Positions 3,061-63,223 of a stretch of DNA of 64,000 bases are shown in pieces. The number at the start of each line of letters is the position of its first letter. Positions within the stretch are counted from its first letter, which is position 1. Both the position numbers and the translations under genes were made by a program. The notes under the pieces are model-generated. The model had not been told where the DNA came from, did not search any database, and saw only the letters and a list, made by a program, of their open reading frames with translations. Location: contig JACPLF010000007.1 in assembly GCA_016186645.1 (NCBI GenBank), forward strand, positions 126,651 to 190,650. The letters are read 5' to 3'. Source of the DNA: Candidatus Levyibacteriota bacterium. Its GTDB lineage: Bacteria > Patescibacteriota > Microgenomatia > Levybacterales > UBA12049.

Positions 3061-3081
3061 TGGGGAATATTATACTATTTT

Positions 3082-4749: not shown

Positions 4750-4786
4750 GATTGTATTTTATAGTATAGCATGCTAAAATAACCCA

Positions 4787-5050: not shown

Positions 5051-5094
5051 CTCCTAAGTGCTTTGACAAAAAGATCAAATTCCCCTAGACTAAA

Positions 5095-5631: not shown

Positions 5632-5634
5632 AAT

Positions 5635-11178: not shown

Positions 11179-12222
11179 ATGACAAAAAAGGAAGTTTTAA
11201 TTACGGGAGGTTGTGGCTTCTTAGGAGTACATCTTGCAAGAAAGCTCCTTAGAGAAAATTATGAAGTAACTCTTTTTGATATTGTGAGTCCTGATGCAAA
11301 AGATCTGATTGAGAAAGTTAAATATATACAAGGGGATGTGCGAAACAAAAAAGCTATTGAGAATGCATTAAAAAACCAGGATTACGTTGTCCACGCAGCT
11401 GCAGCTTTACCAATTTTAAGAGAGAAAAAAATAATTTTCGACATAAATATAAACGGCACTGAAAATGTTTTGAGTTCTGCTTTGCAGAATAAAATAAAAA
11501 GATTAGTTTTCATTTCATCAACCGCAGTTTATGGAATTCCTAGACATCTTCCAGAAACAGAAACAAATCCTCTTGATCCAATTGGATATTATGGAGAATC
11601 AAAAGTTGCGGGAGAAAAATTGTGTTTGGAATATTTCAAAAAAGGACTATCTGTGAATATACTTCGCCCAAAATCATTTTTAGGCCCTGAGAGATTAGGT
11701 ATTTTTGAATTATGGTTTGAAGCGATATATAGAGATAAAAGCGTGTTCATTCTGGGTAACGGCAATAACAAATATCAACTCTTGGCAGTATCTGATGTGG
11801 TTGATGCAATAATAAGGGCAATGGAAAGTGAAATTGATGGAGAAATTTTCAACATTGGAGCAAAAGAGTTCCAGACTTGGAATAAAGATCTGGGATCTGT
11901 AATGAGATATGCAAAGTCCAAATCCAAAATAGTAAAACTCCCTACTCTACCTTCCCAGGTTATTTTAAGTATCTTAGAAAAATTGAATCTTTCCCCAATT
12001 GCTGCCTGGCATTATAAAACTATGCCTGTCGACTCATATATATCTATAAAAAAAGCAGAAAAATTATTAAATTGGGAGCCTGAAAAATCCAATGAGGAAT
12101 TATTAATTGAAAGTTATGACTGGTATAAAAAACACAGAAGTGAAATAATAAATAAAGTCGGGATTACCCACAGAGTCGGCTGGAATTTCAAGCTTATAAA
12201 TCTTATTAAGAATATATTTTAA
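11179..12222 (+). CDS. NAD-dependent sugar epimerase/dehydratase (SDR family)
   Basis: VLITGGCGFLGVHLARKLL Rossmann motif; YxxxK (YGESK) catalytic motif; 347 aa. Confidence 0.8.
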   Translation: MTKKEVLITGGCGFLGVHLARKLLRENYEVTLFDIVSPDAKDLIEKVKYIQGDVRNKKAIENALKNQDYVVHAAAALPILREKKIIFDININGTENVLSSALQNKIKRLVFISSTAVYGIPRHLPETETNPLDPIGYYGESKVAGEKLCLEYFKKGLSVNILRPKSFLGPERLGIFELWFEAIYRDKSVFILGNGNNKYQLLAVSDVVDAIIRAMESEIDGEIFNIGAKEFQTWNKDLGSVMRYAKSKSKIVKLPTLPSQVILSILEKLNLSPIAAWHYKTMPVDSYISIKKAEKLLNWEPEKSNEELLIESYDWYKKHRSEIINKVGITHRVGWNFKLINLIKNIF

Positions 12223-12224
12223 AG

Positions 12225-12791
12225 ATGAATATTGGATTTGATTTAGATAAAATATTTATTAATTATCCTCCTTTTGTTCCATCAAAAATTATTGATTTAT
12301 TATATAAAGGAAAACCGCGTGCGGAATTGGAATATCGTATACCGTCAAGATTGGAGCAGATTATTAGAATATTCAGCCACCACCCTATATTTAGATCTCC
12401 TATAGCTGAAAACATGAATTATGTTAAAGACTTAGCTTTACAGAATGAAAATAAATATTATCTTATTTCCAGTAGATTCAGCTTTTTGGAGAAAAAAACA
12501 ACAGAACTTATAAAGCGTCTCAGCCTAGATAAAATATTTAATGCGATGTATTTCAACTACAATAATGAACAGCCTCATCTTTTTAAAAACGGAGTGCTAA
12601 AGAAGTTAAAACTTGATATGTACATTGACGATGATTTGCAACTTTTGGAATATCTAGGGAATAAAAATCCTAAAATCAAATTTTTCTGGTTGAATAAGAA
12701 GTTTAGCAGATCATTGAAAAAAAATTTATTTGCTATAAAAAACATTTCGGAAATGTTCACCCCGCACCAAAATGGTGCAGGGTTCAAATAA
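12225..12791 (+). CDS. hypothetical protein, possibly degenerate HAD-like (NT5C-type) hydrolase
   Basis: MNIGFDLDKIF resembles HAD motif I (DxD); YIDDDL resembles motif IV; weak. Confidence 0.3.
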   Translation: MNIGFDLDKIFINYPPFVPSKIIDLLYKGKPRAELEYRIPSRLEQIIRIFSHHPIFRSPIAENMNYVKDLALQNENKYYLISSRFSFLEKKTTELIKRLSLDKIFNAMYFNYNNEQPHLFKNGVLKKLKLDMYIDDDLQLLEYLGNKNPKIKFFWLNKKFSRSLKKNLFAIKNISEMFTPHQNGAGFK

Positions 12792-15069: not shown

Positions 15070-16183
15070 TCTCGCACTCGACATGCCTCTGAACTTCTGA
15101 AAAATCCTCTCTTCCTCTTCGGGGGATTAAAACCCATTGATTATTATAGACGGGAGATTCAGGTGGATTAATAAAAATACCTTGTTTTTCCGAATAGGGA
15201 TCTGAGTAGAAAAAAACTACACTATTGACTTGAACATCTTTAACTTTCATGGCAAGTTTTGCAAAATCATCATATTCCTGAGCTTGTATGTTGGTATGAA
15301 TACTATCCTGAAAAACATTATATAAGTTCATAAGTTTTCCAGGGTTAAGTAAGGTATTCAAAGAAAATACTTTATCTTTAAATGCTTCTATTACTATTTC
15401 TTGGCGTCTGGATCTTGCAAAATCTGTGCCTTCTGTTCCTTTCGCATGGCGTGACCGAACAAACTTAAGCGCTTTTTCTCCGTCCATGTGCTGGACCCCA
15501 TCTTTAAAAACTAAGTGTTCATAGCGGCATGGAAATACCTCGAAGATAGCTGATGATGTTGCTCTTTTTTCGAATTCTTCTCCTGTAAATCCACATGGAT
15601 CTGTTTCTTTCCCGGCAATTGGATATTCCAAATCTTCAAATCCTTTCTGAACGCTTACATCTATCCCTCCAACCATATCTATTGCCTTTATAAATCCATT
15701 GAAATCGATACGCAGAACATAGTCGACAGGTTGATTGAAAATTTTCTCAACCACTGCTTTTGTCAAAAGGAGTCCTCCATCTTTTTTTCTCGCCTCTCCA
15801 GAAGAGTAAGCGGTATTGATTTTTGATTTCAGATCTGTGATCCATAAATCTCGGGGGATAGAAATAAGCGTTACTTTTTGGAATTCTGGGTCAATGCTTA
15901 CATAAATCAGAGTATCTGTGAGAAGCGGACCATCGTGTTTTCCTCCTCCAATGCCTAGAAATAATACATTCACCCTATCTTCTGTCTTTTTTAGATCAAT
16001 CTCCTTATGGAAAAAATATTGGAAAATAACAGGAGACCATTTAGCTCCCTCGACAAGAAGCCGTCCAAAAAGTCCAACAAAAAGAAATACCAATGCTATT
16101 ATTATCGCCTTCTTATGCGTTTTTAATGATTGCGTAAAATTCTTGAGCATCAAGACTTGCCCCCCCAACCAAGACTCCGTCAA
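15041..16183 (-). CDS. LytR-CpsA-Psr (LCP) family cell-envelope phosphotransferase
   Basis: N-terminal TM anchor then LCP domain (VNVLFLGIGGGKHDGPLLTDTLIYVSIDPEFQKVTLISIPRDL); true start probably an internal Met, since the first 70 nt overlap tpiA. Confidence 0.7.
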   Translation of the reverse strand: MTESWLGGQVLMLKNFTQSLKTHKKAIIIALVFLFVGLFGRLLVEGAKWSPVIFQYFFHKEIDLKKTEDRVNVLFLGIGGGKHDGPLLTDTLIYVSIDPEFQKVTLISIPRDLWITDLKSKINTAYSSGEARKKDGGLLLTKAVVEKIFNQPVDYVLRIDFNGFIKAIDMVGGIDVSVQKGFEDLEYPIAGKETDPCGFTGEEFEKRATSSAIFEVFPCRYEHLVFKDGVQHMDGEKALKFVRSRHAKGTEGTDFARSRRQEIVIEAFKDKVFSLNTLLNPGKLMNLYNVFQDSIHTNIQAQEYDDFAKLAMKVKDVQVNSVVFFYSDPYSEKQGIFINPPESPVYNNQWVLIPRRGREDFSEVQRHVECEIKIGDCPLQ

Positions 16184-18677: not shown

Positions 18678-19662
18678 TCACCCATTACAATCTGCTGCGT
18701 GGGGTGAATTTAGAAAAAAAACTGGAATAAAAGTAATAAAAATTAATAGAACCCAAATAACAATTCACAAGGTTCCTCACACACCCTGGACAATTGGCTA
18801 TGTCCCAAAAGGTCCGCTTCCAGACAAAGAAATGATTTCAGAACTTAAGAGAATCGGGAGAGAGAAAAAATGTGTGTTTATTCAGCTGGAACCAAATGTA
18901 TTAATTGAAAATTCTAAATTGAAAATTGAAAATTTAGGTCTTAAGCCAGCCGCTCATCCTTTGTTTACAAAATATACTTTTGTGTTGGATTTAACAAAGT
19001 CCGAAGTGGAATTGCTGAAAGAAATGCATCCAAAGACTAGATACAACATAAAAGTAGCGCTCAAACACGGTGTTAAAATTGTTCAGGATAATTCGAATGA
19101 AGCTTTTGAAACCTATTTAAAATTGACAGAAGAGACAACAAGAAGACAAGGTTTTTATGCGCATACAGAAAAATACCATAGGCTAATGTGGGAAACATTA
19201 AAAAATGAAAAATTAAAAATGAAAAATGAAAAATTGGATACTGATAAACTTACTGCTCATCTCTTATTGGCTAAGTATAGTCCAAACTCTCAACTCTCAA
19301 CTTTCAATTCTCAACTCGTTCTGGCTGCTTGGATTTTGTTTGTTTATAAAGATACCCTTTATTATCCATATGGCGCATCAAGCAGTTTACATCGGGAAAC
19401 AATGGCATCAAATCTAATAATGTGGGAAGCAATAAAGTTTGGAAAAGAATTAGGTCTTAAAAAATTTGACATGTGGGGAGCCTTAGGGCATGATCCTTCT
19501 ACAAATGACCCTTGGTATGGATTCCACAAATTCAAACAAGGATATGGGCCAAAACTTACTGAATTTGTTGGAAGTTTCGATCTGGTAATAAATCCGTTTT
19601 TTTATGAGATGTATAAAATAGCAGACAAAATTAGGTGGGCACTTCTGAAAATTAAAAAATGA
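18661..19662 (+). CDS. FemAB-family peptidyltransferase (peptidoglycan interpeptide bridge formation)
   Basis: 333 aa, FemABX/GNAT-like fold signatures (...YYPYGASSS...MWEAIKFGKELGLKKFDMWG); carries three in-frame simple tandem repeats. Confidence 0.55.
   Translation: MKALTNHPLQSAAWGEFRKKTGIKVIKINRTQITIHKVPHTPWTIGYVPKGPLPDKEMISELKRIGREKKCVFIQLEPNVLIENSKLKIENLGLKPAAHPLFTKYTFVLDLTKSEVELLKEMHPKTRYNIKVALKHGVKIVQDNSNEAFETYLKLTEETTRRQGFYAHTEKYHRLMWETLKNEKLKMKNEKLDTDKLTAHLLLAKYSPNSQLSTFNSQLVLAAWILFVYKDTLYYPYGASSSLHRETMASNLIMWEAIKFGKELGLKKFDMWGALGHDPSTNDPWYGFHKFKQGYGPKLTEFVGSFDLVINPFFYEMYKIADKIRWALLKIKK
19201..19235. repeat. (gaaaaat)n tandem repeat in-frame in FemAB gene
   Basis: aaaaatgaaaaattaaaaatgaaaaatgaaaaatt encodes KNEKLKMKNEKL; related (ttgaaaa)n tracts at 18916-18935 and 33526-33562 and in intergenic DNA at 45826-45856 and 53825-53856. 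Confidence 0.65.
19286..19317. repeat. (ctctcaa)n tandem repeat in-frame in FemAB gene
   Basis: aactctcaactctcaactttcaattctcaactc encodes NSQLSTFNSQLV. Confidence 0.65.
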
Positions 19663-21023
19663 AAAAGCTTATTCCTCTTGCCCTTTTTATATTATTTTTT
19701 CTTTTATTAAAAGTGGACAGCAATTCCATAAGATTATCCGATACGAATATCTATTTCAATATTGCATACCAAATCTTCAATGGAAAATTATTGTATAAAG
19801 ACATTTTTTTCTCTAATTTTCCCTTTTTTTCATATGTATCTTCTTTATATTATTTAATAACGGGAAAAAATATAGAACTTTTTTATTTTACTTCTTCTTT
19901 GGAAATTGCGATAATTACAACTTTTATATATCTGGTAGTTTACAAAAAAACAAAAGATTATATTATCTCAATAATTAGTGTAGTCTTATATATTTTTTCT
20001 TTTATTGTGCTGTCTACATCCGATCACCAAACAGGAATTTTTACGGCATCCTTATTTGCAATATTGGGATTTTATTTTCTAAAGGAAAAAGCGTTATTGT
20101 CCGGAGTCTTCCTTGCAGCATCATTTTTAACCAAAGCATATTTTCTCCCCATAGTCCTTGCTTTTTATGGCTATCTCCTTCTACAAAAAGACAAAGAGAA
20201 AATAATTAAATTTAGTATTGGATTTATTTTAGTATCGTTATTTATTCTATTGCCTTTTTTACTGCTTGCTCCAAAAGAATTTCTCTCCGATATTTTTGGC
20301 TTTTCTCTTACCCGCCCGGTAGGTCTCTCAAAATTAAATATTATGTGGTTTTTTATAACAAAAGATTTTCTGCTTTTTATTCTGTTGATCTTTAACCTAT
20401 TAAATATTAGAAAAAATATTTTATTTGGCATAATGTCTATGTTCTCCATAATTTTCTTCTTTGGATACCAAGATATATATTATCTATATCTAAATTTTTT
20501 ACCACCATTCCTTTGTATTTCCCTCTATGAATTTGTTTTCTTTTTAAAAAATAAGTTTAATCTTCAAAAACTAGTTATCCCAACCATAATTTCTTTTTTT
20601 ATTTTGCTTAACCTATTTACTTATGTTTCCTCCTATCGAAATCTAGGAAAAATCGAAGATGTAAGCAAAATCACGGAAATAATAAAGAAAGAGAAACCTG
20701 ATTATTTGTATGGCGTTAATGACATTACTCCGGCATTAATAGCTATTACGAAAATTCCTGCATTAGAAAATGTTAATGATGCGCATGAATATTTTTTTAC
20801 AAGAGGAGTCTATGATAAAAATATATTAACAGATAAAGCAATTAAAACTAAAACAATAATTGTTACTCATGGAGCAGATTATCCGGACTACGATATTAAA
20901 CAAGACATTTTAGACAACATTTTTGTAAAAGAGGCCATTTATAAAAATTGCAAAAAAATTTTAAGTGTTCCTGCGATATCCGAAGGAGACGCTAATAGGA
21001 TAAATTTATTTAAGTGTTATTAA
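19659..21023 (+). CDS. polytopic membrane protein, probable GT-C glycosyltransferase (ArnT/PMT-like)
   Basis: 454 aa, at least 10 TM helices, C-terminal soluble domain; same architecture as other GT-C genes in the window. Confidence 0.4.
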   Translation: MKKLIPLALFILFFLLLKVDSNSIRLSDTNIYFNIAYQIFNGKLLYKDIFFSNFPFFSYVSSLYYLITGKNIELFYFTSSLEIAIITTFIYLVVYKKTKDYIISIISVVLYIFSFIVLSTSDHQTGIFTASLFAILGFYFLKEKALLSGVFLAASFLTKAYFLPIVLAFYGYLLLQKDKEKIIKFSIGFILVSLFILLPFLLLAPKEFLSDIFGFSLTRPVGLSKLNIMWFFITKDFLLFILLIFNLLNIRKNILFGIMSMFSIIFFFGYQDIYYLYLNFLPPFLCISLYEFVFFLKNKFNLQKLVIPTIISFFILLNLFTYVSSYRNLGKIEDVSKITEIIKKEKPDYLYGVNDITPALIAITKIPALENVNDAHEYFFTRGVYDKNILTDKAIKTKTIIVTHGADYPDYDIKQDILDNIFVKEAIYKNCKKILSVPAISEGDANRINLFKCY

Positions 21024-34636: not shown

Positions 34637-35788
34637 GTGAATTCTTATCACAAGCTCCTACGTTCAATTGGACTTATCATAGTATTAATAATAGTAGGGA
34701 CTATTTTAACTAAGTATGCTCCTATAAAAACTGCTACTATCCCCATATCCGTAACTACTCAGGATGTTCCGGAAATGGCAGATATTTTAGATCCTAGTAA
34801 TCAAGAAAAAAGATTAAAAGCAGCAAGAAAATTAGTAGAAAGAGTTGATGTCGAACAGGCTTTGGAGATTTTGGAACACTCTAGCCTACCGCATACCGGA
34901 GAAGGTCATTTGGTTGTACATCAAATTGGATTTTATGCTTACAAAAAATATGGGGTGGATTCAATTCTAAAATGCAAAGATTACTTTCTTTATGCTTGCT
35001 ATCATGGGACAATAATTGAAGCAGCGTCCAACGAGGGTTTTGAAGCGATTAAAAAAATGACGGATAAATGTAAAGCATCTCCTGTCAGATATTTCCAGTG
35101 CGTTCATGCTGCGGGCCATTCAATTCTCGCCATGTGGAATTATGATATGCCCAAAGCATTAGAAACTTGCGATTCGATTTATGAAAAAGAAACGGAATTT
35201 CCAGAGGCCTTATCATCTTGTCATAATGGCTCTTTTATGGAAAACCTTTTCGGAGTACATGATTGGGGCAGTGGCAAAGAACCCGTAAGAGATTGGCTGT
35301 CTGATGATCCGTATTTTCCCTGCAACTATTTTGGAGAAAAATATCAAAGGGGATGTTGGCTCAACCAAGCAGCTAGGATTTATCAGATGAACAAAGGAGA
35401 CATGGTTAAAACTTCTCAAATTTGCCAGGAAGCTGGCAATTCAGAATACGTGGCCTGGTGTATGGACAATGTAGCAAGACAAATTCATCCATTAACTCTG
35501 GGAGATCCTGCCAAATCTTTTGAACTTTGTCAGCAAGAAGGAGTCGATTGGTATGATAATTGCCTGGTAGTAAATGCCGGATCATTTTATTCGGTTGGAG
35601 GACGCGACCAGGCAATATTTATCTGTCAAAATGTACCCCCGCATTTAAAGAATGAATGCTACCAAAGAGTAATTGGGCAAATTGTTTCTGACCCAATTGA
35701 TGTCGGACAAAAACAAGCTCTTTGTCAAAAACTTGAGCAGCCGTTCAATAATCATTGCTTCGCAGGCCTGACCCCTGTAAATTTTTAA
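34637..35788 (+). CDS. membrane-anchored extracytoplasmic Cys-paired repeat protein (paralog of the repeats in 39605..42115)
   Basis: N-terminal TM anchor; about 18 Cys in pairs; motifs CYHGTIIEAAS, CVHAAGHSILAMW, PYFPCNYFGEKYQRGCW, shared with the downstream 836-aa protein. Confidence 0.5.
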   Translation: MNSYHKLLRSIGLIIVLIIVGTILTKYAPIKTATIPISVTTQDVPEMADILDPSNQEKRLKAARKLVERVDVEQALEILEHSSLPHTGEGHLVVHQIGFYAYKKYGVDSILKCKDYFLYACYHGTIIEAASNEGFEAIKKMTDKCKASPVRYFQCVHAAGHSILAMWNYDMPKALETCDSIYEKETEFPEALSSCHNGSFMENLFGVHDWGSGKEPVRDWLSDDPYFPCNYFGEKYQRGCWLNQAARIYQMNKGDMVKTSQICQEAGNSEYVAWCMDNVARQIHPLTLGDPAKSFELCQQEGVDWYDNCLVVNAGSFYSVGGRDQAIFICQNVPPHLKNECYQRVIGQIVSDPIDVGQKQALCQKLEQPFNNHCFAGLTPVNF

Positions 35789-36506: not shown

Positions 36507-36785
36507 ATGGATAATCAAAATAAAATAACATCTATCTTATTTCTTCTTAAAAAAAAGAAAATACTTATTGGAGTACCATTGCTTCTGCTTTCTGTCGGAG
36601 TAATTTATGTTGGGCTAGTGCGATTTGGAGTTATCAAAGATCCTTTCCCTCTTCCTAATATACCTTTTCTTCAAACAGTCCCACAAGTTTCTATAAAAAC
36701 AGAATACAAAAATCCTTTTGATAAAAAAACCCAGTACGTAAATCCATTTGACACTTATAAAAATCCTTTTGTAATTGCAAAATAA
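36507..36785 (+). CDS. small membrane protein with C-terminal NPFD repeats, coupled to the giant protein
   Basis: 92 aa; one TM; C-terminus KNPFDKKTQYVNPFDTYKNPF; TAATG overlap with the next gene. Confidence 0.35.
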   Translation: MDNQNKITSILFLLKKKKILIGVPLLLLSVGVIYVGLVRFGVIKDPFPLPNIPFLQTVPQVSIKTEYKNPFDKKTQYVNPFDTYKNPFVIAK

Positions 36786-39553
36786 TGATAATAAGTAAAA
36801 TTTTAACATTGAACCCTATTAAGACATTACTTCTGGCATTGGCTGCGATGTTTTTATTATTTCTCGTAACAACTTCTGTTTTTTCACAAAGCCCAACAAT
36901 CCAACCAACAACTGCTACAGGACCGTCTCTTAACCTTGCTTTTCCCATAGAAGAATTGGGCGCATGCAAGAGTCTGGAAGAATGTAGCAATTATTGTCAG
37001 GATCCTGTTCACCAAAACAGTTGTACTAATTTTGCAAAGAAAAATGGATTCTATCAGGATGACCAAACAGCCTATGGAGATGATAAATTTTATCAGGATG
37101 TAAAAGAGGAATTAGGATGCGATACGCACGAATCTTGTTTTAACTTTTGTTCAGAGCCTGCGAATTTTGACACATGCGAATCCTATGCCAAAAGAAATGA
37201 AATACCAGGCGGCTATGTCGGAGAACCGGATAAGCCTGAATATTTAACCATTGCTAAGCAAGTTTTAGGTTGTGATTCACCTGTAAGCTGCTCAAATTTC
37301 TGCGATGATCCCGCAAATGCTGATAAATGTTCTAGCTTTGCTGATCAAGTAGGACTTTTAGGCGGAAATACTCAAGAAGGTCCTGGTGGATGTCAGACTC
37401 CCGGCACTTGCGGAGCATATTGTTCTGATCCTGCAAATTATGTGGAATGTTCTAAATTTGCTCCGGGAGGGGGTAATTTTGCAGGACCAGGCGGGTGTAA
37501 TAGTGAAGCAACATGTCGAAGTTATTGCGATCAAAATCCTGCTAATTGCCGAAGTTATGCTCCCGGCTCAAGTGGGGCATATGGGACTTTTAATTGTGTC
37601 GAAGGTCAGACTCATGGACCAGGCGGACTTTGTACCAATGTGAACGTTATGGCTTTGGCTGCTGCCTGCGTTGGAGCTGGTAAATTTTGGGATGGAACTT
37701 CCTGTCAGGATACCGCTCCTGTAGGTATATCTCCAGAACTGCCAAGTGCGCATTTTGAACAAAGACCGGAAATGGGCAATTGCTCAACTCCTGGTCAATG
37801 TTATGATTATTGTAAGGATAATCTTGTGAATGGTGCGAGCGTTTGTCCGGGATTCGATGCTACAGCATCCCGTCCAACCGACAGCTATACACCATATCTA
37901 TATTATACTCCCGGAACTGAGGTTAAATTTGAACCAAAGCCGGAGATGGGTAACTGTGATTCTCCTGGCGCTTGTTATGACTATTGTAAAGAAAATCCCG
38001 ATAAATGCGAAGGATTTGATCCTAAGGCTCCAGTACCAATAGACATTTGGATTCCAAATACTTACTACACTCCTCCTACAGATGGTATCTATTCTACTCC
38101 GCCAACAACCAATTTCTACACAACGCCAATGTACTACACTCCGCCAGTCGGCTCTACTTATACTACTCCTCAATACTACACGCCTGGCACATATTCTACT
38201 CCAAGTTACTATACACCGCCTATAGGATCGAACTATACTACGCCTAACTACTATACTCCTTGGACTAATTATGCGACACCAACCGGAGAGTATCCGACTC
38301 CGACTTATTCAACACCAACTTACTACACTCCTCCTGGTGGATCTAATTACACAACGCCTTACTATTACACTCCCCCTCATTACACAACGCCTTACTATTA
38401 CACTCCCGGCCAAGGTGGCTATGCGTCTAATTACACAACTCCTCCTGCCTATTCAACTCCTCCGCCATATGTAACTCCTCAGTATTACACGCCTTACACC
38501 GGCGGCGGTTATACAACTCCTGTTTACTATACACCGCCTGTTTACACAACCCCAACTTACTACACTCCTCCTGCAGGCTCGAACTACACCAGCCCAAGTT
38601 ATTACACGCCTCCTCCTCCTTATACAACACCAAATTACTATACTCCTGGCACTTACCCAACACCTCCTACTTATACATCTCCTACGGCTTATACGACGCC
38701 TAACTATCCAACTCCTCCATTAGGCAGTAACTATACCTCCCCTAGCTATTATTCGCCAGCAAGCTATCCAACACCAACTTATTACACACCAGGTTTTTAC
38801 CCAACACCTTATTATTACACGCCTTATTCAACACCCTCCTATCACACTCCTCCTGAAGGATCAACCTATACCAGCCCGACTTACTACACACCATATTCAA
38901 CGCCAAATTACTTTACGCCAACGTACTATTCACCTTCTTACTACACGCCTGGCGGAACCTACACAAGTCCTTATTATACTCCTGGAAGCGGTTACACATC
39001 CCCAACCTCAAATTATACAACTCCATCAACTAGCTATACTTCTCCATACTACAGTCCTTACGCAAGTCCATCATATTACACACCCTCAGACCCGAATTAT
39101 ACAACGCCGTCTTATCCAACGCCTTATTCCTATCCTACTCCGGGATCAACAACTTCTTATCCATACCCGACTCCTGGAACAGGATATTCTTACCCAACGC
39201 CAAGCGGCTATTATTACCCAACCCCATCAGACACTAGTTATCCTTCTCCATATACCGGCTATGCTTATCCAACGCCTGGAACTAGTTATTCTTACCCTTC
39301 GCCAACATACGGCACGCCTTCGGGAAGCTATTATTACCCAACACCCGGATCCGGATCTTATGGCACGCCATCATACGGCACCCCTGAATATCACACACCA
39401 AGCTATGGAACACCTTCAGAAAGCTACGGAACACCGAGTTATGGAACGCCATCGTATGGCACTCCTTCTGATTACCCAACCCCTCCCTTGGGAGTTTCCA
39501 CCTTCAATCCCGGATTATTACAGAATATCTGGAGCTTCCTTATCGGCAGATAA
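36785..39553 (+). CDS. giant secreted protein: seven 4-Cys modules followed by about 500 aa of Tyr/Thr/Pro-rich repeats
   Basis: Signal/TM at N-terminus; repeats of G-C-x4-C-x2-[YF]-C-x2-P-x-N-x2-3-C-x2-[FY]-A; then YYTPP / GSNYT[TS]P repeats; hydrophobic C-terminus. Confidence 0.6.
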   Translation: MIISKILTLNPIKTLLLALAAMFLLFLVTTSVFSQSPTIQPTTATGPSLNLAFPIEELGACKSLEECSNYCQDPVHQNSCTNFAKKNGFYQDDQTAYGDDKFYQDVKEELGCDTHESCFNFCSEPANFDTCESYAKRNEIPGGYVGEPDKPEYLTIAKQVLGCDSPVSCSNFCDDPANADKCSSFADQVGLLGGNTQEGPGGCQTPGTCGAYCSDPANYVECSKFAPGGGNFAGPGGCNSEATCRSYCDQNPANCRSYAPGSSGAYGTFNCVEGQTHGPGGLCTNVNVMALAAACVGAGKFWDGTSCQDTAPVGISPELPSAHFEQRPEMGNCSTPGQCYDYCKDNLVNGASVCPGFDATASRPTDSYTPYLYYTPGTEVKFEPKPEMGNCDSPGACYDYCKENPDKCEGFDPKAPVPIDIWIPNTYYTPPTDGIYSTPPTTNFYTTPMYYTPPVGSTYTTPQYYTPGTYSTPSYYTPPIGSNYTTPNYYTPWTNYATPTGEYPTPTYSTPTYYTPPGGSNYTTPYYYTPPHYTTPYYYTPGQGGYASNYTTPPAYSTPPPYVTPQYYTPYTGGGYTTPVYYTPPVYTTPTYYTPPAGSNYTSPSYYTPPPPYTTPNYYTPGTYPTPPTYTSPTAYTTPNYPTPPLGSNYTSPSYYSPASYPTPTYYTPGFYPTPYYYTPYSTPSYHTPPEGSTYTSPTYYTPYSTPNYFTPTYYSPSYYTPGGTYTSPYYTPGSGYTSPTSNYTTPSTSYTSPYYSPYASPSYYTPSDPNYTTPSYPTPYSYPTPGSTTSYPYPTPGTGYSYPTPSGYYYPTPSDTSYPSPYTGYAYPTPGTSYSYPSPTYGTPSGSYYYPTPGSGSYGTPSYGTPEYHTPSYGTPSESYGTPSYGTPSYGTPSDYPTPPLGVSTFNPGLLQNIWSFLIGR

Positions 39554-39604: not shown

Positions 39605-42115
39605 ATGTTCAAATTCTTCGCGTTACTCTTATTTCTCATTTTTCATTTTCCTGCCTCGCCGCCAGGCGGGTCTTTTTTCATTTCTCCTGTTTCTGCTCAT
39701 TCAGAAGTTGCGGTTATAGAAATGGTGCCTTATGGCTTTGTTCCTTCTGAAACAACTATTGATGTAAATTCAAGTGTAATTTTCATCAATAAAGATAGTC
39801 AACCAAGATGGCCTGCCAGCAATGTCCATCCGACTCATAATATATATCCCGAATTTGATCCAAAAAAACCAATTGAGCCCGGAGAATCATGGGCATTCAA
39901 GCCTAAAAGAATAGGAGAATGGAAATTTCACGATCATAATTTCCCCCATATGAGAGGAGTTTTAACTGTCGTTGATGAAGAAGGTTTTACTTCAGAGGAA
40001 AAAATAGAGTCCCCTTCTTTTGTTACTAAGTTTAAAAATGCAATTAACAATTTCTTTAATCAGATTAAAAACTTATTCGCTAAAAAAGCATTAAATCAAC
40101 AGGTACAATTACCTGATAAAGAAGGGTTCAAAAAACTATCTTATGATGCTCAATCTAAAATACTAGAAAAAATTGCGAGAAACAATGGTGCTTCAAAAGC
40201 TTGGGAATATGTGAAAGATGTTTTCAAAGGAGAAGGAGGATCTTCCGGCAACATTCATGATTTGGCGCATTTATCAGGTCTTTTGATATATGAAAAGAAT
40301 GGCTTTGAAGGAATTAAAGACTGCACTAGTAATTTTGCTTTTGGCTGTTATCATGGTTTTTTAGATACTGCTTTTGCCAAAAATTTGGACCATCTTTTGG
40401 ATGCAGAGAATGCTTGTTTGAAATTAGGCCCTACTAATTCCGGACCTGTTGCAAGCTGCATACACGGAATTGGACATGGAGTTGCTTCTTTTTATTCAAC
40501 GCAGGATTTGGAAAAATCTCTTGTTACCTGCAGGAAATTAAACCAAGGCAATGAATACTGTTTTGATGGAGTATTTATGGAATTTGTCCGCTCCGCGCCC
40601 GATTCATTTTTTAAAAGTAACGATCCCTACTACCCTTGCAACAGCTTGGAGGAAAAATATGGATATTCTTATTCATCTGCCTGCGGAAGAAATCAATCTT
40701 CCCTTTTAATGAGTAGATTTAATATGGGATTTGACGAAGTGGTTGGAATTTGTCTTTCTTCAACATCAAAACCTTTTAAAGAAAGTTGTTTCGACGCTCT
40801 AGGATTTTCTCTTGCTTCTTCTGGAGATGTTAACCAAATAATAGTAGGGTGTCAAAAGATGCAGATATCTGAATATATTAATAAGTGCGCAAAAGCTGCC
40901 GCAGGAGAGTTAGTTTTTCAGGAAATACCCGGATGGCCGGAAAAATCAAAAGAAGTTTGTAATGCATTTGAAAAAAGCGAAGAGTGTTTGCAAAACGTAG
41001 ATAGACTTATTAAGGAATATAACCTTCAAGTCCAAATCAACTTTACCCCAAAAGAACTCAATGAAGATATTAATTTATATGTAAGAAGCCAGATGAAAAA
41101 ATGTTATGAAACGGATGGCAGGGACGGATGCTACAAAGCCGTTGCTGACATATTGTATAGTCAGTTTGGTTTAGCCAAAACTCTTAATGTTTTTAAAGAA
41201 AACGAAGGATATGTAGAAATTTATGCAAGATGTCATGAGACAACTCATTATCTTTCCCGGCTGGAATATGAGAAGCAAAAGAGTATTGCCAAAGTTTATG
41301 CTCAATGTGATTCAACATGTCATGGAGGATGTTACCACGGAACACTTGAGGCATATCTTAAAGAAAAGACAAATGAGACTGGATTTAATCTAGTGAGTCG
41401 ATTTGCTAAAGTTTGCGGAAAACAAAGCGATTATCAGAAGCCTATCGAGTTTAATGAATGTCTTCATGGCATGGGACACGCAGCAATGTTTGTCACAGAT
41501 ATGGAACTTAAACAATCTTTAAAGCTTTGCGATACTATTGCTGATCAAGCGCATAAAGAAAGATGTTATACCGGAGTATTTATGGAAAATTCCTCATCCT
41601 CTACTTCTTTTGATCATGCAAGTATATACATTAAAAAAGATGATCCATTTTATCCATGCAATTCTTTAGAGGAAAAATATTTATCTTTGTGCTGGCAGTA
41701 TCAAAGTTCGTATTTTTCCATTATCAGTCACCAGGATTGGAAAAAAGTAGCAAGTCTTTGCCTGCAAATTCCTAATCAGTATCAAGATCGATGCTTTAGG
41801 ACTATCGGAACAAACCAAGTTGGTTTTACTCAATCTTTAGAAACCATGAAAAAAGATTGTGATCTTATGCCCTCTGAAAATTTTAAAGACATTTGTATTG
41901 CAGGCGTTGTTTCCTCTCTTTCCTATCGTTTTGTCGGAGACATGCGAAAAATGATTGACTTTTGCTCTCTTGTCTCTTCACAAAATAGAGAAAGCTGTTA
42001 CAAACAAATTGGTAATGGAGTTTCTGATTGGGATAGCAACAAAGATGTGGCAAAAAACCAATGTCAAAAAATTCCCGACCCCCAAGGCCAATCTTGGTGC
42101 CTGAGCGCAATATGA
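39605..42115 (+). CDS. secreted protein: N-terminal cupredoxin-like domain (Cys ligand replaced) plus two tandem Cys-paired repeat domains
   Basis: Signal peptide; EWKFHDHNFPHMRGVLTVVDE aligns to the amicyanin/pseudoazurin loop Y-x-C-T-P-H-P-F-M-R-G-K-V-V-V-E with Cys replaced; then two repeat units with CYHGF, CIHGIGHG, YPCNSLEEKY motifs. Confidence 0.55.
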   Translation: MFKFFALLLFLIFHFPASPPGGSFFISPVSAHSEVAVIEMVPYGFVPSETTIDVNSSVIFINKDSQPRWPASNVHPTHNIYPEFDPKKPIEPGESWAFKPKRIGEWKFHDHNFPHMRGVLTVVDEEGFTSEEKIESPSFVTKFKNAINNFFNQIKNLFAKKALNQQVQLPDKEGFKKLSYDAQSKILEKIARNNGASKAWEYVKDVFKGEGGSSGNIHDLAHLSGLLIYEKNGFEGIKDCTSNFAFGCYHGFLDTAFAKNLDHLLDAENACLKLGPTNSGPVASCIHGIGHGVASFYSTQDLEKSLVTCRKLNQGNEYCFDGVFMEFVRSAPDSFFKSNDPYYPCNSLEEKYGYSYSSACGRNQSSLLMSRFNMGFDEVVGICLSSTSKPFKESCFDALGFSLASSGDVNQIIVGCQKMQISEYINKCAKAAAGELVFQEIPGWPEKSKEVCNAFEKSEECLQNVDRLIKEYNLQVQINFTPKELNEDINLYVRSQMKKCYETDGRDGCYKAVADILYSQFGLAKTLNVFKENEGYVEIYARCHETTHYLSRLEYEKQKSIAKVYAQCDSTCHGGCYHGTLEAYLKEKTNETGFNLVSRFAKVCGKQSDYQKPIEFNECLHGMGHAAMFVTDMELKQSLKLCDTIADQAHKERCYTGVFMENSSSSTSFDHASIYIKKDDPFYPCNSLEEKYLSLCWQYQSSYFSIISHQDWKKVASLCLQIPNQYQDRCFRTIGTNQVGFTQSLETMKKDCDLMPSENFKDICIAGVVSSLSYRFVGDMRKMIDFCSLVSSQNRESCYKQIGNGVSDWDSNKDVAKNQCQKIPDPQGQSWCLSAI

Positions 42116-56695: not shown

Positions 56696-57979
56696 ATGAC
56701 TGAAAGGGAAAGGGGCATACAGCTTGAATTAACGGGATTTGAGATGGAAGGAGAAACCTATGGCTTCTTACCCAGCTCTGATTTAAAAAGATGGACAGAG
56801 GAGGACGATCCTTACGAAAAGGCGTTTCGACGTCTTCCCCTAGGAAGATTAGATGGCGTAAAAGCCTTAAGTTTTTTATCTTACATAGGTCCTGCCGCAA
56901 AAGATCAAATTTTTCTACCATATACTCATACCAGATTCGATCATTCATTTGTGGTTGGGCTTGTCATAGAAGCTATAATGAGACAAAATGGATTTGATCA
57001 AGAAGATATAAATGTAGGGATTGTGGCAGGATTAATTCATGATATTGCAACTCCTGCACACGGGGATGCGACCAAAAAAGTTGACCCAAAAGCTTTGGAC
57101 GAAGAACAATTTTGGTGGGAAGCATTAGGAGAAAATGGACAAGTTTTTGTTACTCAAGAACTTAACATACCGCAAAAAAGATTAGATGCAATTATTAAAA
57201 ACCAAGGAATAATAGGTCAAGTGTTGGATATAGCAGATAGAATTACCTACACTATGAAAGACCTTAACGAAATTGTTGCAGTAGATCAAAATAATGCTTG
57301 GTCTTGGGTTTTTCAAAATCCTTATCTGCAAGAACTTCATGATTTTACCATGATCAATCCCAAAATCGGAAATATCTATAAAGAGGTCGGGGTTGATAGA
57401 AAAAAGAACGAAGTATTTTTCAATGATCCAAGAAACCTTGGCATATTTCTTTTATTAAGAGCTCGCCTTCATAAAACTCTTTATATGAATCCAGTCAGTC
57501 AGGGAAGAGATCTTTTCATAGCTTCCCTTATTAAGAGATTATACTCAAGAGACGGAAGGAGGCCCCTTTCTCCCAAGAGCCTAAGAGGGATGACAGATGA
57601 AAATCTTATCGAGGTTTTGCAAAAGTATTACAAACCGGAATATGGAGATTTTTCACAAAAGCTATATCACGACTTAACAAGTTGGTATCCGTATTTTGAA
57701 AGATTTACAACTAAAGAAGAAGCAATAGAGCGAATAAAAGAATTAAAAAAAGACAAGGATATTTTAATTATAGGCATGAGTCAATGTAAAGGATTTGATC
57801 CGGGAACATCGTACAAAGTAACCAACGAAAAAGGACAGACAGTACCATTTAGAGAATTTGATCCTGTCATCGCATCGGAAATAGAAAGGGTCATGGACGA
57901 AACAAAAGGTTTTTTCGTTTTCTTTGTGAATATTTCTGAAAGAAATTCCATCAATTCTTTCCTCCGAAAACATTCCTAA
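56696..57979 (+). CDS. HD-domain phosphohydrolase
   Basis: H...HD motif (HSFVV...GLIHDIATPAHGD). Confidence 0.6.
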   Translation: MTERERGIQLELTGFEMEGETYGFLPSSDLKRWTEEDDPYEKAFRRLPLGRLDGVKALSFLSYIGPAAKDQIFLPYTHTRFDHSFVVGLVIEAIMRQNGFDQEDINVGIVAGLIHDIATPAHGDATKKVDPKALDEEQFWWEALGENGQVFVTQELNIPQKRLDAIIKNQGIIGQVLDIADRITYTMKDLNEIVAVDQNNAWSWVFQNPYLQELHDFTMINPKIGNIYKEVGVDRKKNEVFFNDPRNLGIFLLLRARLHKTLYMNPVSQGRDLFIASLIKRLYSRDGRRPLSPKSLRGMTDENLIEVLQKYYKPEYGDFSQKLYHDLTSWYPYFERFTTKEEAIERIKELKKDKDILIIGMSQCKGFDPGTSYKVTNEKGQTVPFREFDPVIASEIERVMDETKGFFVFFVNISERNSINSFLRKHS

Positions 57980-59876: not shown

Positions 59877-60117
59877 AACTTAGTTTGGAGTATATCACAA
59901 AAAAGAGGCTAAGCCAACCCCGATTTAATCGGAGCCAAACCCATTTTTCCGCGGACTTCTTACATTATTTCTTTGTCCACTAAGGTAGAATGCAACATCC
60001 TCTTTAGAGCGAGCATTTCTATTTTGTCAAGTAGTAGTTTATCCTATCAAATCAAGCTAAACGAATATATATATTATATAGATAATAAAGGGTATATAAT
60101 CCTCAAACCTAAATCAT

Positions 60118-61848
60118 ATGGCAATGAGTCATGACTTTGAAGTATTTGTCCAAAACGACAAGATTACAAGAGAAGATTGGCGCAAACTAATACTCAAGAT
60201 ACAAACCTACGAAGGGAATTTCGTAGTTGAGGTTCGTTTTGAAACAAATAACGTAGAGTTTTATATTTATTCTCAAAAGGATCTCTCATCTTTGGGAGAT
60301 AAACTTGAAGGGTTTATTGTTAAACCTATTGATAGAGGGATGGTAAAAAAGCCAGAGTTCCAAAAGCACATAAATTTTAAGCTTTCTTCAAATAAAAATA
60401 TACTCGAGATTAGAGAAAAAGAACAAATCAAAAACCAAAGAACCATAAGTAATGTATTTATCCGTTTTAAAAGAATAGTTAAGGCTAACGTTCATTTTGT
60501 CACCATATTGTTAAGTGATAGTAAAAATAATAGGTATTACTCAAGTTATTTTAGCCTTCTTAATCCCCTCCTTAGCTTTGATTTTGATTTTAACAGTAAT
60601 ATAAAAATAACCAAAAAATCCGTTCCTTTATTTCTTAAAATCGATGAAGCAACTAAATTATTCACTCAAGACTACAAGAATGACTTACTGGAGGTTGTTG
60701 GATTTCCTCAATTTTCAACACCCACCTATTTTCCTTTAAGAAATTTTGAGTTTGGAATGCACAGCCTTGTTGTAGGACAAACAGGGGTCGGGAAAACTAA
60801 ATTCATAGAGCTTTTCGTCAAAAATATCGCAAAATACTCTCCCAGCGAATATGTAATAGTAACCATCGACCCTCACTCTCAGCTATACTCTCAATTTTTG
60901 AATATTAATGAAAATAAAGTTAATTTTGATTTTATAAAAAATTCATGCGAGCTTTTTCCTGCATTTTCAGAACCAAAAATTGCCACGGAATTAACAATTC
61001 TTCTTTTTAAAACATTGTTAAAGGATCAGTTTAACGCCAAAATGGAAAGAGCACTTAAGTACGCCTTATACGTATTGTTTCTTCGAAATAACATGTCTTT
61101 GGACGCCTTAAAAAAATTTCTTACCAGTCTTGAGTTTAGAAGGCAAATTTTAGAATCTTTAGGAGGCGACTACGATTACCTAATTCAATTTTTCGGCACT
61201 GAATTTGTCGAATTCCAAACAAAGTTTTACGAAGTATCTATTATGCCTATCTTGGTACTTATAGATGAATTGAGCTTTATTCCTGCCTTCTTTAATAATA
61301 AAACTACCAACAATTTAGAGTCAGCACTCAAGGAGAATTTTTCGGTAACGTTTTCTCTAAACAGGATATTTTTAGGAGAAAAGGCGACAAGACTTATTGC
61401 AGGTCTTATAATTCAGCAGCTATTTCTTATTGCCCAAAAAGGCGGAATAAACAAAAAAATAATTCTTATAATTGATGAAGTTTCCACCGTTGAGAATGAA
61501 GGCCTGGTAAATATACTTTCAGAATCAAGAAAATTTGGATTGTCACTTTTTCTTTCCCAGCAATACCTAACCCAAATTACCCCAAACCTTCTAAAAGGCA
61601 TCCTGTCAAACGTCTACAATTATTTTGTCTTTAAGGTTTCTGACGAGGACGCAAAAATTATAGTAAAAAACCTGGATATATCTTTTCCGGACGAAATTTT
61701 GGTTAGGGAAAAATCTAAAGGGCTTGAGGATGAAGATCTGAAAAGAAATTTACTGGTAACTTTAAATCCCAGAGAATGCCTGGTCAGAGCTTTTGCAAAC
61801 GGTAAATTTTTTCCATGTTTTAAAGCAAAAACTATTGATGTAAACTAA
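60118..61848 (+). CDS. FtsK/HerA/VirB4-superfamily P-loop ATPase (orphan) with about 200-aa unknown N-terminal domain
   Basis: Walker A HSLVVGQTGVGKTKF, Walker B KIILIIDEVSTV, superfamily Arg/Gln motif SESRKFGLSLFLSQQYLTQI; no TM segments. Confidence 0.6.
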   Translation: MAMSHDFEVFVQNDKITREDWRKLILKIQTYEGNFVVEVRFETNNVEFYIYSQKDLSSLGDKLEGFIVKPIDRGMVKKPEFQKHINFKLSSNKNILEIREKEQIKNQRTISNVFIRFKRIVKANVHFVTILLSDSKNNRYYSSYFSLLNPLLSFDFDFNSNIKITKKSVPLFLKIDEATKLFTQDYKNDLLEVVGFPQFSTPTYFPLRNFEFGMHSLVVGQTGVGKTKFIELFVKNIAKYSPSEYVIVTIDPHSQLYSQFLNINENKVNFDFIKNSCELFPAFSEPKIATELTILLFKTLLKDQFNAKMERALKYALYVLFLRNNMSLDALKKFLTSLEFRRQILESLGGDYDYLIQFFGTEFVEFQTKFYEVSIMPILVLIDELSFIPAFFNNKTTNNLESALKENFSVTFSLNRIFLGEKATRLIAGLIIQQLFLIAQKGGINKKIILIIDEVSTVENEGLVNILSESRKFGLSLFLSQQYLTQITPNLLKGILSNVYNYFVFKVSDEDAKIIVKNLDISFPDEILVREKSKGLEDEDLKRNLLVTLNPRECLVRAFANGKFFPCFKAKTIDVN

Positions 61849-61852
61849 GATT

Positions 61853-62545
61853 ATGGACACAACAAAAGCAAAACAAATAACAGATTACATATTCAAGGAC
61901 GTCTTTGGGATGGAAAACCCTTTTTCTTTAGGCGAGCTCCAAAGAAGATTTGCGATGGATATTCCTTTACCTCAAAAAGTAGTCTCTGCTTTGTCGAAAA
62001 AAGATACATGGACAAATTCATCAGTAGAAAAAATTGCTTCTCAAGAAGAGATAGGAGATAGATTTAAAAAGGATGAGTGGACAGTCAAGAAGAAGCCTCT
62101 CCGCTCTATTCAGGATATTTTAAAAGCCTGGGAAGAAATAAACTATTTGACAGGAGAAAAGTATATAAATTCTAGAGATATAATCGAATCTGACAGCGTA
62201 TATAACAGCTCTGATGTCTACCGTAGCATGTCAATATTTGATTCCAAAAATATCGTATTTTCCTATAAACTTTTTGACTCAAATTACATGCTTGCTTCAA
62301 GAGATAATTCTTCCTGTACTCTTGGAATAAGGGTTAAGGAAGCTATCTTCTGCTCGTCGGGATTTGAAATTTCTTGGTCTAATAAAGTTTCAAAAAGTAT
62401 GTATATCCATGACTCTTTTGATTTATTCGAGTGTCTTTTCTGCTCGCATCTCCGATCCAAAAAATATTGCATAGCCAACATGCAGTTTGAAAAAGAGGAA
62501 TATTTTGAACTCAAAAAACAGGTTGTTGATTGGATTTTAAAGTAG
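61853..62545 (+). CDS. hypothetical protein with C-terminal Cys cluster, co-operonic with the ATPase
   Basis: 230 aa; 4-nt gap after the ATPase gene; C-terminal CTLG...CSSG...ECLFCSHLRSKKYC Cys pattern. Confidence 0.3.
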   Translation: MDTTKAKQITDYIFKDVFGMENPFSLGELQRRFAMDIPLPQKVVSALSKKDTWTNSSVEKIASQEEIGDRFKKDEWTVKKKPLRSIQDILKAWEEINYLTGEKYINSRDIIESDSVYNSSDVYRSMSIFDSKNIVFSYKLFDSNYMLASRDNSSCTLGIRVKEAIFCSSGFEISWSNKVSKSMYIHDSFDLFECLFCSHLRSKKYCIANMQFEKEEYFELKKQVVDWILK

Positions 62546-62588: not shown

Positions 62589-63035
62589 TCAATTTATATC
62601 TTTTCTGAATCTAAGTTCAAAATATCCTTTGAATTTCTGGAAATCAAGTCTTGCAAAGTTAAATATACTGTCTTCCCCCAAAATACACGGCCAGATCAAT
62701 CGCTCGTTATCAATAACTGTAAACGGCAAATTAAAATCATACCCATAAATGTTAATGTCTATTGCGGGAAGTTGCCAAGATTTATATTCACCGCTCACCG
62801 AAATTCCTTTATCTGATGCTCCTAATTTTTCTAAATTAAACCCAAGAGCTTCGGCAACAAGTGGGTGAAGAATTGATTTATTAGCTCCTGAATCAACTAA
62901 AGCAATCAAGGGTTGAGGCAAACTTGTCTCACTATGTTTTAGTTTTACTTTTAAAATAGGCCACTTAACTCCAGGTCCTCCCGGAAGTATATCGTACCAA
63001 ATCTTTATCGGAGTCTGAAACTGATTTTGCTTCAT
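62589..63035 (-). CDS. retropepsin-like (clan AA) aspartic protease
   Basis: ALVDSGANKSILH contains the D-S-G-A catalytic motif; 148 aa, a single lobe. Confidence 0.6.
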   Translation of the reverse strand: MKQNQFQTPIKIWYDILPGGPGVKWPILKVKLKHSETSLPQPLIALVDSGANKSILHPLVAEALGFNLEKLGASDKGISVSGEYKSWQLPAIDINIYGYDFNLPFTVIDNERLIWPCILGEDSIFNFARLDFQKFKGYFELRFRKDIN

Positions 63036-63223
63036 TAGCCAACGTAGCTCGAGTAATCTTTTGCGGCAACCATAATAAATCCCTTAGGATTCCCCAAATG
63101 TTTAAGCCTTGCGAGTAGTTGTCGAAGGGTTTTTCCCTGAGCTATAATTTTTTTGTTGTCGTTTGAAACAGAAACCCACCCAATTTTTCCTTTTAATGTT
63201 TTCGTTAAATTAGTAACTGCCAT
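63035..63223 (-). CDS. small basic protein translationally coupled (TAATG) to the aspartic protease
   Basis: 62-aa ORF; stop overlaps the protease start codon by 1 nt. Confidence 0.3.
   Translation of the reverse strand: MAVTNLTKTLKGKIGWVSVSNDNKKIIAQGKTLRQLLARLKHLGNPKGFIMVAAKDYSSYVG

Follow-up and report, generated by a model that had tools for sequence, protein, structure and literature searches.

A chromosomal operon of Patescibacteria and DPANN-type archaea pairs a putative soluble FtsK/HerA-superfamily ATPase with a protein predicted to form a beta-solenoid

We combined homolog searches, locus comparison and structure modelling to characterize two adjacent genes in a 64,000-nucleotide (nt) stretch of the genome of a Candidatus Levyibacteriota bacterium (contig JACPLF010000007.1, positions 126,651 to 190,650; hereafter the window). 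The first gene (60118..61848, plus strand), taken from the list of open reading frames (ORFs) and matching the Pfam families DUF87 and TrwB_AAD_bind above their cut-offs, encodes an ATPase of 576 residues. The second (61853..62545, plus strand), supported by the same list and by homolog searches, encodes a partner protein of 230 residues, apparently of a previously undescribed family. Together they form a dedicated, translationally coupled and co-evolving two-gene operon, which is inherited chromosomally across the candidate phyla radiation (CPR) and is present in DPANN-type archaea. Our best overall explanation, a coupled operon in which a DNA motor works with a dedicated partner, has a probability of roughly 0.4. 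Within it, the identification of the pair as a conserved core module, and not a defence system, a mobile element, an FtsK or a conjugation component, is very probable, and the mechanism of a DNA motor with a processing partner, argued by analogy, is tentative.

Both ORFs are real genes and not chance ORFs, because searches returned 175 full- or part-length homologs for the ATPase and 249 for the partner (668 in another search). Homologs of both proteins came from Levy-, Woese-, Davies-, Roizman- and Saccharibacteria; full-length ATPase homologs occur across Patescibacteria at 39-87% identity, and the partner recurs with 100% identity as an annotated protein of a Candidatus Levybacteria metagenome-assembled genome (MAG). 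In a scan seeded by pattern matches and covering one genome per species, ATPase relatives were confirmed in 277 genomes. The best 80 loci among the species-representative genomes, spanning Microgenomates, Saccharibacteria, Uhrbacteria-type lineages and genuine archaea, were used for locus analysis. In 77 of these 80 loci the partner gene lies directly downstream of the ATPase gene in the same orientation, and the remaining three end at a contig edge. The ATPase stop codon and the partner start codon are separated by a median of 1 nt (4 nt in the window, on the same strand), and 68 of the 77 gaps are 10 nt or shorter or are overlaps. Pairwise divergences of the two proteins correlate with r = 0.92, and their trees are congruent at the clade level (neighbor-joining without support values, hence indicative only). 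A preliminary description of this DNA, made from the sequence alone, had already treated the two genes as a pair with a 230-residue partner starting after 4 nt, and the comparison across loci bears this out.

The inheritance of the pair follows that of its hosts. ATPase identity to the window protein tracks taxonomy, at 59-87% in Microgenomates, about 42% in Uhrbacteria and 35-40% in Saccharibacteria. The Saccharibacteria copies are just slightly more diverged than FtsH from the same loci (37% for the ATPase and 37% for the partner versus 47% for FtsH). No third gene is conserved across the 80 loci, where every neighbour cluster is clade-specific housekeeping; in Saccharibacteria, for example, uvrB and gatCAB stay beside the pair in 23-28 loci, or about half of the set. 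Neither did any cluster for conjugation, type IV secretion system (T4SS), pilus, com, relaxase, NurA, Mre11, Rad50 or defence genes recur across these loci. Translated searches (tblastn) of phages and plasmids together with a scan of IMG/VR found no relative of the partner, and tblastn found none of the ATPase in phages. Its plasmid relatives are distant P-loop matches only, to archaeal conjugative-plasmid ATPases of 1,025-1,370 residues at 22-29% identity, with only the P-loop in common. Some loci (L007, L010, L012, L017, L020 and L021) come from MAGs titled Bdellovibrionales, Gammaproteobacteria or Binatia, with a G+C content of 0.43-0.52; these assemblies are probably mislabelled or misbinned, because their copies nest within CPR clades in both trees.

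Loci labelled "archaeon" or "Micrarchaeota" also carry the pair, with the ATPase 44-47% and the partner 45-55% identical to the window proteins. These are genuine archaea, since genes of the archaeal mevalonate pathway (AcnX, UbiD, isopentenyl-phosphate kinase and HMG-CoA reductase) or for diphthamide synthase lie beside the pair. In the trees of both genes (neighbor-joining, rooted with a deeper archaeal branch, without support values) the archaeal clade sits among the non-Saccharibacteria CPR clades, tentatively suggesting that the whole pair moved between the CPR and archaeal radiations. The number of partner genes per ATPase varies from 1 to 6 tandem paralogs. Arrays occur in 8 loci: six copies in L004, four in L058, three in L039 and L050, and two in L029, L047, L059 and L074. 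The L004 array (11725-16074 of that locus), in a Micrarchaeota MAG, places all six paralogs after a single ATPase, and these are 38-47% identical to the window partner. The array paralogs are old, as their pairwise identities are 40-61% (40-52% in L004 and 50-61% in L058).

Turning to the proteins, the ATPase carries the motifs of its superfamily, with key residues that are invariant in an alignment of 36 ATPase homologs. Walker A, VVGQTGVGKTKF, spans residues 218-229 (60769..60804, plus strand; G220, G223, G225 and K226 invariant). The sequence IILIIDEVST at residues 448-457 (61459..61488, plus strand; D453 and E454 invariant) is what we take to be Walker B, by analogy with the hhhhDE motif of FtsK. 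The arginine-finger and sensor-glutamine block SRKFGLSLFLSQQYLTQ follows at residues 470-486 (61525..61575, plus strand; R471, K472, Q482 and Q486 invariant) and falls within the TrwB_AAD_bind and TraD matches. A helical insert separates Walker A from Walker B, and where it ends, ahead of the true Walker B, lies a second Walker-B-like motif, the acidic ILVLIDE (residues 378-384; 61249..61269, plus strand), with D383 and E384 invariant. Thus, the features that define the FtsK-HerA superfamily (Walker A, an hhhhDE Walker B, a conserved arginine after Walker B and a polar sensor, here glutamine, closing the following strand) are all present. By contrast with this motor half, residues 1-200 (60118..60717, plus strand; isoelectric point 9.3, versus 8.85 for the whole ATPase) form a family-specific domain that matched nothing in Pfam, NCBIfam, PADLOC or the PDB. 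Conservation is lower here than in the motor half (column identity 0.37-0.54 versus 0.6-0.8; mean divergence 0.64 versus 0.40), and the domain cannot be aligned to the deep-branch archaeal ATPase of locus L082. The ATPase has no transmembrane (TM) helix; its hydropathy (Kyte-Doolittle, over 19 residues) peaks at 1.86, at residue 373 in a stretch that includes D and E, no segment of the N-terminus qualifies, and FtsH encoded next door reaches 2.56. Neither protein of the pair has a signal peptide or TM helix. Across loci the median ATPase length is about 670 residues, compared with 576 in the window. In Saccharibacteria, orthologs (for example L030, 10001-12022) extend at the C-terminus by about 95 low-complexity residues rich in Pro and Gln; this tail has a basic, KRKRK-like end directly before the partner start codon.

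Profile matches place the ATPase in the superfamily and in none of its curated families. The Pfam model PF01935 (DUF87, the HerA central domain) scored 27.9 bits against a cut-off of 23.2, with only residues 213-272 aligned, and PF10412 (TrwB_AAD_bind) scored 27 bits against 20.5 but covers residues 444-512 only. PF01580 (FtsK_SpoIIIE) remained below its cut-off (19.9 versus 24). Among NCBIfam models, those for TraD, HerA_antiphage and EccC gave weak matches far below their cut-offs (for example TIGR03743, 37 versus 366 bits; TIGR02759, 22 versus 521 bits; NF042943, HerA_antiphage, 20.9 versus 800 bits), and the CedD model NF053655 gave no match to the window ATPase at an E-value of 1 or better. 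PADLOC, applied to the pair and the two ORFs downstream, gave mad8 as its best match (8.5e-14), with HerA matches at 2.4e-7 or weaker that cover the P-loop only, and a PDB profile search likewise returned P-loop matches only, to FtsK, defence HerA and TrwB. On this basis the ATPase is classified as a predicted soluble P-loop ATPase of a new family inside the FtsK/HerA/TraD superfamily, because residues 1-200 match nothing and the defining features of FtsK, type IV coupling proteins (T4CPs) and HerA-NurA are absent. The preliminary description had named the superfamily, the three motifs, the novel N-terminal domain and the absence of TM helices correctly. Its proviso that the protein might simply be a diverged FtsK or TraD is not what we found, given the scores below the curated FtsK and TraD cut-offs and the missing TM helix.

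The partner has no match in Pfam, NCBIfam, PHROG or the PDB by sequence or profile, and its only PADLOC match is marginal, with no meaningful hit to any defence model. An AlphaFold2 (AF2) model built from an alignment enriched with Saccharibacteria homologs reached a predicted local distance difference test (pLDDT) score of 91.8 and a predicted template modelling (pTM) score of 0.84, compared with a pLDDT of 56 for an earlier model from a shallow alignment. The model shows a beta-rich domain followed by a C-terminal helix. In full, the predicted fold consists of an alpha/beta domain (residues 1-101; 61853..62155, plus strand; delimited from the modelled secondary structure), a Ser/Cys-laddered beta-solenoid (residues ~105-212; 62165..62488, plus strand) with a six-residue h-x-S-x-x-h periodicity, and the helix. 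Fold searches with the model (PDB Foldseek and BFVD) returned nothing significant, and no structural match was found for the alpha/beta domain. An alignment of 28 diverse members, including bacterial and archaeal proteins, array paralogs and halves of double-unit relatives, defines a C-terminal signature, F196-C197-x-[H/N]-x5-[Y/F]-[C/A]-I-[A/G]-N209-x7-Y217-x3-K221 (62438..62515, plus strand). N209 and Y217 are present in all 28 members, F196 in 27, I207 in 26, K221 in 25 and C197 in 24; F171 is nearly invariant too.

The preliminary description had pointed to a CxxC...C cluster at the end of the partner and to a possible Zn-ribbon or nuclease fold. The cysteines are indeed there, as C194-x2-C197-x8-C206, but the positions are not conserved and the predicted fold is a beta-solenoid. 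The window protein has cysteines at 155, 167, 194, 197 and 206 and histidines at 186 and 199. Among the 28 members, position 194 is Cys in 19 and Ser in 5, position 197 is Cys in 24 and Ser in 4, position 199 is Asn in 19, position 206 is Ala, Leu, Met or Val in 9, and position 167 is Cys in only 12. A family-wide Zn-ribbon or metal cluster was therefore ruled out by these exchanges with Ser, Asn, Ala and Leu, in a region modelled as solenoid strands; the positions behave as interior-ladder residues of a solenoid would. Within CPR alone, conservation of C167, C197, H199 and C206 reaches 90% or more, so that a lineage-specific Cys3His site may exist there.

An exhaustive profile search extended the partner superfamily to 1,610 representative clusters, of which about 50 are single-unit and more than 1,000 are fused double-unit proteins of ~515-540 residues. 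The latter contain two tandem partner-like alpha/beta plus solenoid units, are rich in CxxC motifs and, like the partner, have no match in Pfam or NCBIfam. Every double-unit context sampled is archaeal, and to that extent the wider superfamily seems an archaeal one. Four of these proteins stand alone among archaeal housekeeping genes without an ATPase, which points to a function of the solenoid protein in its own right, and the existence of a fused form implies a dimer or hetero-oligomer as the working state of the single-unit protein. The exception in context is L082 (Micrarchaeota; 2554-7690), where a 559-residue DUF87/TrwB ATPase is followed by a double-unit protein and then by two or more single-unit paralogs. 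This ATPase is 34% identical to the window ATPase, in the motor half only, and its best NCBIfam match is the CedD model (38 versus 600 bits). Further double-unit relatives are encoded at L081 8001-9617, L085 4145-5737 and L087 2836-4458. Directly downstream of the one in L085, an archaeal contig, lies a Pol-beta nucleotidyltransferase and HEPN pair (5785-6793). Such pairs are typical toxin-antitoxin or defence-like modules.

Upstream of the operon in the window, ftsH is transcribed divergently (start at 59876, minus strand). The AT-rich intergenic region between ftsH and the ATPase gene (59877..60117) is presumed to hold the promoter of the two-gene operon; a TATAAT hexamer can be read directly at 60095-60100. 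Promoter and terminator scans gave nothing above shuffled sequences, and Rfam returned no match, and thus no upstream regulatory RNA, in this region. The block was previously placed between ftsH and trpS, which holds for ftsH, but the partner gene is separated from trpS by a two-gene cassette on the minus strand (62589-63223). The cassette encodes a 148-residue retropepsin-like aspartic protease (Asp_protease_2, 25.3 bits versus a cut-off of 24.3) and a 62-residue ORF with a weak DUF5678 match that overlaps the protease gene by 1 nt; it may represent a small mobile cassette or one of toxin-antitoxin type. The window is a housekeeping stretch, as its genes around the pair include lepA, murJ, uvrD, dnaG, rpoD, purA, purB, guaA, guaB, ftsH and trpS. 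No conjugation, NurA, T4SS, relaxase, pilus, com or defence gene is among its annotated ORFs, in agreement with the earlier reading that conjugation and NurA neighbours are lacking. There are no flanking repeats, tRNA or integrase around the pair, whose G+C content (0.29-0.35) is slightly below that of its flanks. Elsewhere in the window, a 427-residue protein between guaB and ftsH (56696-57979, plus strand) has no assignment beyond a weak HD-domain match (24.6 bits) confined to its N-terminal quarter. Two adjacent ORFs of 922 and 836 residues (36785-39553 and 39605-42115, plus strand) have no Pfam match at 1e-6, and the same is true of ORFs at 7855-9402 (515 residues), 19659-21023 (454 residues) and 34637-35788 (383 residues). 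Large unmatched ORFs of this sort are typical of CPR genomes.

In the mechanism that we tentatively favour, the ATPase would assemble into a cytoplasmic hexameric ring, and its variable N-terminal domain would dock the beta-solenoid partner, probably present as a dimer or hetero-oligomer, since fused double-unit relatives and paralog arrays exist. ATP hydrolysis would then drive DNA, the likeliest nucleic acid substrate, up to or past the partner, which would act as the substrate-engaging or processing subunit. The logic would be that of HerA-NurA and similar pairs of motor and effector, yet in a constitutive housekeeping role in ultra-small, DNA-scavenging cells instead of in immunity. The catalytic elements expected of a ring translocase are all found in the ATPase (Walker A, Walker B, arginine finger and sensor glutamine). 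Most characterized FtsK-HerA members move DNA, including FtsK, HerA, TrwB/TraD, CedB/CedD and viral packaging ATPases. Several points weigh against this mechanism. Neither protein shows a signature of nucleic-acid binding or of a nuclease, and some superfamily members, such as VirB4 and EssC, handle proteins instead of DNA. Tandem partner arrays would suit structural subunits or substrates no less than a processing enzyme. In addition, no ortholog could be identified in Southlakia ML1, the one CPR organism with transposon sequencing (Tn-seq) data, when its tables were examined for annotations, ECOD domains, gene lengths and synteny with gatC/uvrB. The pair is possibly absent from the reduced oral lineage of this organism and is thus probably not universal in CPR.

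The main alternative, although on the unlikely side, is a different role for the same two proteins: the ATPase might be an assembly or remodelling motor for a beta-solenoid polymer. Partner paralogs would stack end-to-end into a filament or scaffold, intracellular or exported, in the manner of bactofilins or curli, and the ATPase would nucleate, remodel, disassemble or deliver partner subunits. The 1 to 6 anciently diverged tandem paralogs per ATPase are what a set of major and minor structural subunits typically looks like, and both the fused double-unit form and the double-unit relatives that work without any ATPase are in line with it. Within Microgenomates the partner is also at least as conserved as the ATPase (58-89% versus 39-87% identity), as expected of a protein with many interfaces. 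On the other hand, neither protein has an export signal or membrane segment, and a 100-residue alpha/beta domain together with the invariant polar residues N209 and Y217 suggests a binding or catalytic site instead of a mere polymer. Moreover, FtsK/HerA-class ATPases are not known as filament assemblers.

A broader proposal, which we regard as unlikely, is that the pair represents an unrecognized core machine of ultra-small episymbiotic prokaryotes, common to CPR and DPANN, in which a soluble ring motor and a new class of beta-solenoid carry out a lifestyle-specific process. The module would have moved between the two radiations at least once. Examples of such a process would be the dismantling or handling of scavenged host DNA for nucleotides, or a new cytoskeleton- or partition-like system.

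Could the ATPase instead be an exapted T4CP, serving a chromosomal Patescibacteria T4SS or a type IV pilus/competence apparatus remotely, with the partner as adaptor or translocated substrate? Quinonero-Coronel et al. (PMC12102498) reported in 2025 5,713 VirD4-type T4CP homologues in 2,918 Patescibacteria genomes, of which 148 lie near virB4, and raised exaptation. Homologues far from virB4 are thus common, and they may or may not include the window ATPase family. The TrwB_AAD_bind and TraD-type matches over the Walker B and sensor region point the same way, as do the resemblance of paralog arrays to substrate arrays and the weak match of the distant L082 ATPase to the DNA-import ATPase CedD. 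Nevertheless, we consider this improbable. The ATPase has no TM anchor and scores far under every TraD, VirD4 and CedD cut-off in NCBIfam, and strong conservation of the partner is atypical for secreted substrates. The T4CP-like proteins of Southlakia ML1 are 800-920 residues long with another architecture. Finally, no T4SS, pilus or com gene recurs in the 80 loci or appears among the annotated ORFs of the window; the synteny with pilus, competence or conjugation genes that the preliminary description had considered is accordingly absent from both sets.

The same description had suggested an anti-phage module or a relic of a mobile element. In the former, a HerA-like ATPase would scaffold a toxic partner and activate it upon infection. 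SIR2-HerA and DUF4297-HerA are two-gene designs of a HerA-type ATPase with an effector, and the layout of our pair resembles theirs. Its variable partner copy number, the mad8 and HerA matches in PADLOC and the weak HerA_antiphage match are further points in its favour. But these matches are limited to the P-loop at the superfamily level and are far below cut-offs, the MADS system is an 8-gene operon whose seven other genes are absent here, and the partner matches no defence model. The distribution is congruent with taxonomy in both trees and shows no patchiness in the genomes covered, and the chromosomal position is stable among housekeeping neighbours. Both sequences are strongly conserved, whereas immunity genes would be expected to turn over rapidly; searches found no copy of the partner in phages, plasmids or IMG/VR, and none of the ATPase in phages. 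A defence role is therefore very unlikely. Least tenable of all, and largely refuted, is the idea of a mobile-element relic, or of a merely diverged FtsK/TraD for chromosome segregation or conjugation: the slightly lower G+C content, the distant similarity to archaeal conjugative-plasmid ATPases and the adjoining protease/DUF5678 cassette speak for it, but both genes are intact and strongly constrained in hundreds of genomes, no repeats, tRNA or integrase flank them, the plasmid relatives are 1,025-1,370 residues long and share only the P-loop, the FtsK_SpoIIIE score is below its cut-off with no 4TM, alpha or gamma domain, and a canonical FtsK is present, and essential, in Southlakia ML1, a CPR bacterium in culture.

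Much of microbial diversity consists of CPR bacteria and DPANN archaea, whose tiny genomes nevertheless retain many genes without assigned function. An operon that has been kept, coupled and co-evolving from Microgenomates to Saccharibacteria, and also in archaea, is unlikely to be dispensable baggage, and it joins a well-understood type of motor to a protein family described in no database. For that family, with its 1,610 clusters, the fold is predicted with confidence, and two residues (N209 and Y217) are invariant in every member aligned. The pair is not described in surveys of CPR-enriched families or in a recent perspective. It is more interesting than an "orphan" pair, for another reason than the one first given, and its distribution is also a caution that a HerA-like ATPase with an unknown partner should not be called defence before its distribution has been checked. 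Two small soluble proteins make a concrete experimental target, and point mutants at K226, D453/E454 and R471 of the ATPase and at N209 and Y217 of the partner would address a testable question, whether the motor moves DNA or remodels its partner.

Among known systems, HerA-NurA, the motor and nuclease of DNA end resection in archaea and bacteria, is close in organization. In both cases an FtsK/HerA-superfamily ATPase, here with DUF87 above its cut-off, shares an operon with one dedicated non-ATPase partner, and both proteins are cytoplasmic without TM helices. However, the partner here is a predicted beta-solenoid without any Pfam match and not the RNase-H-like nuclease NurA, family and profile searches detected no HAS-barrel in residues 1-200 of the ATPase at the sequence level, and the pair is centred on CPR and DPANN with no Mre11/Rad50 neighbours. 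The defence systems SIR2-HerA, DUF4297-HerA and MADS, with mad8, have in common with it the two-gene layout of motor plus effector and a weak similarity at the P-loop level, but their effectors are unrelated to our partner, the other mad genes are absent, and the context is housekeeping instead of defence islands.

T4CPs (VirD4, TraD and TrwB) resemble the ATPase from Walker B to the sensor, in the long helical insert between Walker A and Walker B, and in gene positions away from any virB4. They differ in their N-terminal TM anchor, in their relaxase or T4SS neighbours, and in that the ATPase fails all curated TraD and VirD4 models and is always coupled to its beta-solenoid partner, which T4CPs are not. 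FtsK/SpoIIIE proteins differ by their TM helices and by the 4TM, alpha and gamma (KOPS-binding) domains (PF13491, PF17854 and PF09397), none of which matched the ATPase. CedD is the HerA-clade DNA-import ATPase of the crenarchaeal Ced system of Sulfolobales (PMC11868833). CedB and CedD share with the ATPase a HerA-clade motor, a family-specific N-terminal domain, a chromosomal location and a cellular, non-plasmid function; yet CedD proteins combine a TM segment with a VirB4-NTD-like N-terminus, and the partners of CedD are the membrane proteins CedA and CedE and not a beta-solenoid. CedD is useful as a functional comparator for the ATPase, but the two are related no more closely than at the superfamily level.

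For the partner, curli CsgA, ice-binding and antifreeze proteins, left-handed beta-helix acyltransferases and gamma-carbonic anhydrases reach only 8-9% identity, with no significant Foldseek match. In addition, the partner lacks a Hexapep or other Pfam match and has an extra N-terminal alpha/beta domain and its own N209/Y217 signature. The double-unit proteins (e.g., MBU0586622.1 of a Candidatus Micrarchaeota) share true homology and the C-terminal signature with the partner, but they carry the unit fused twice, are richer in CxxC motifs and usually do not lie beside an ATPase. Overall, the theme of a motor with a dedicated partner is already known, and what appears to be new here is the partner family and the coupled module.

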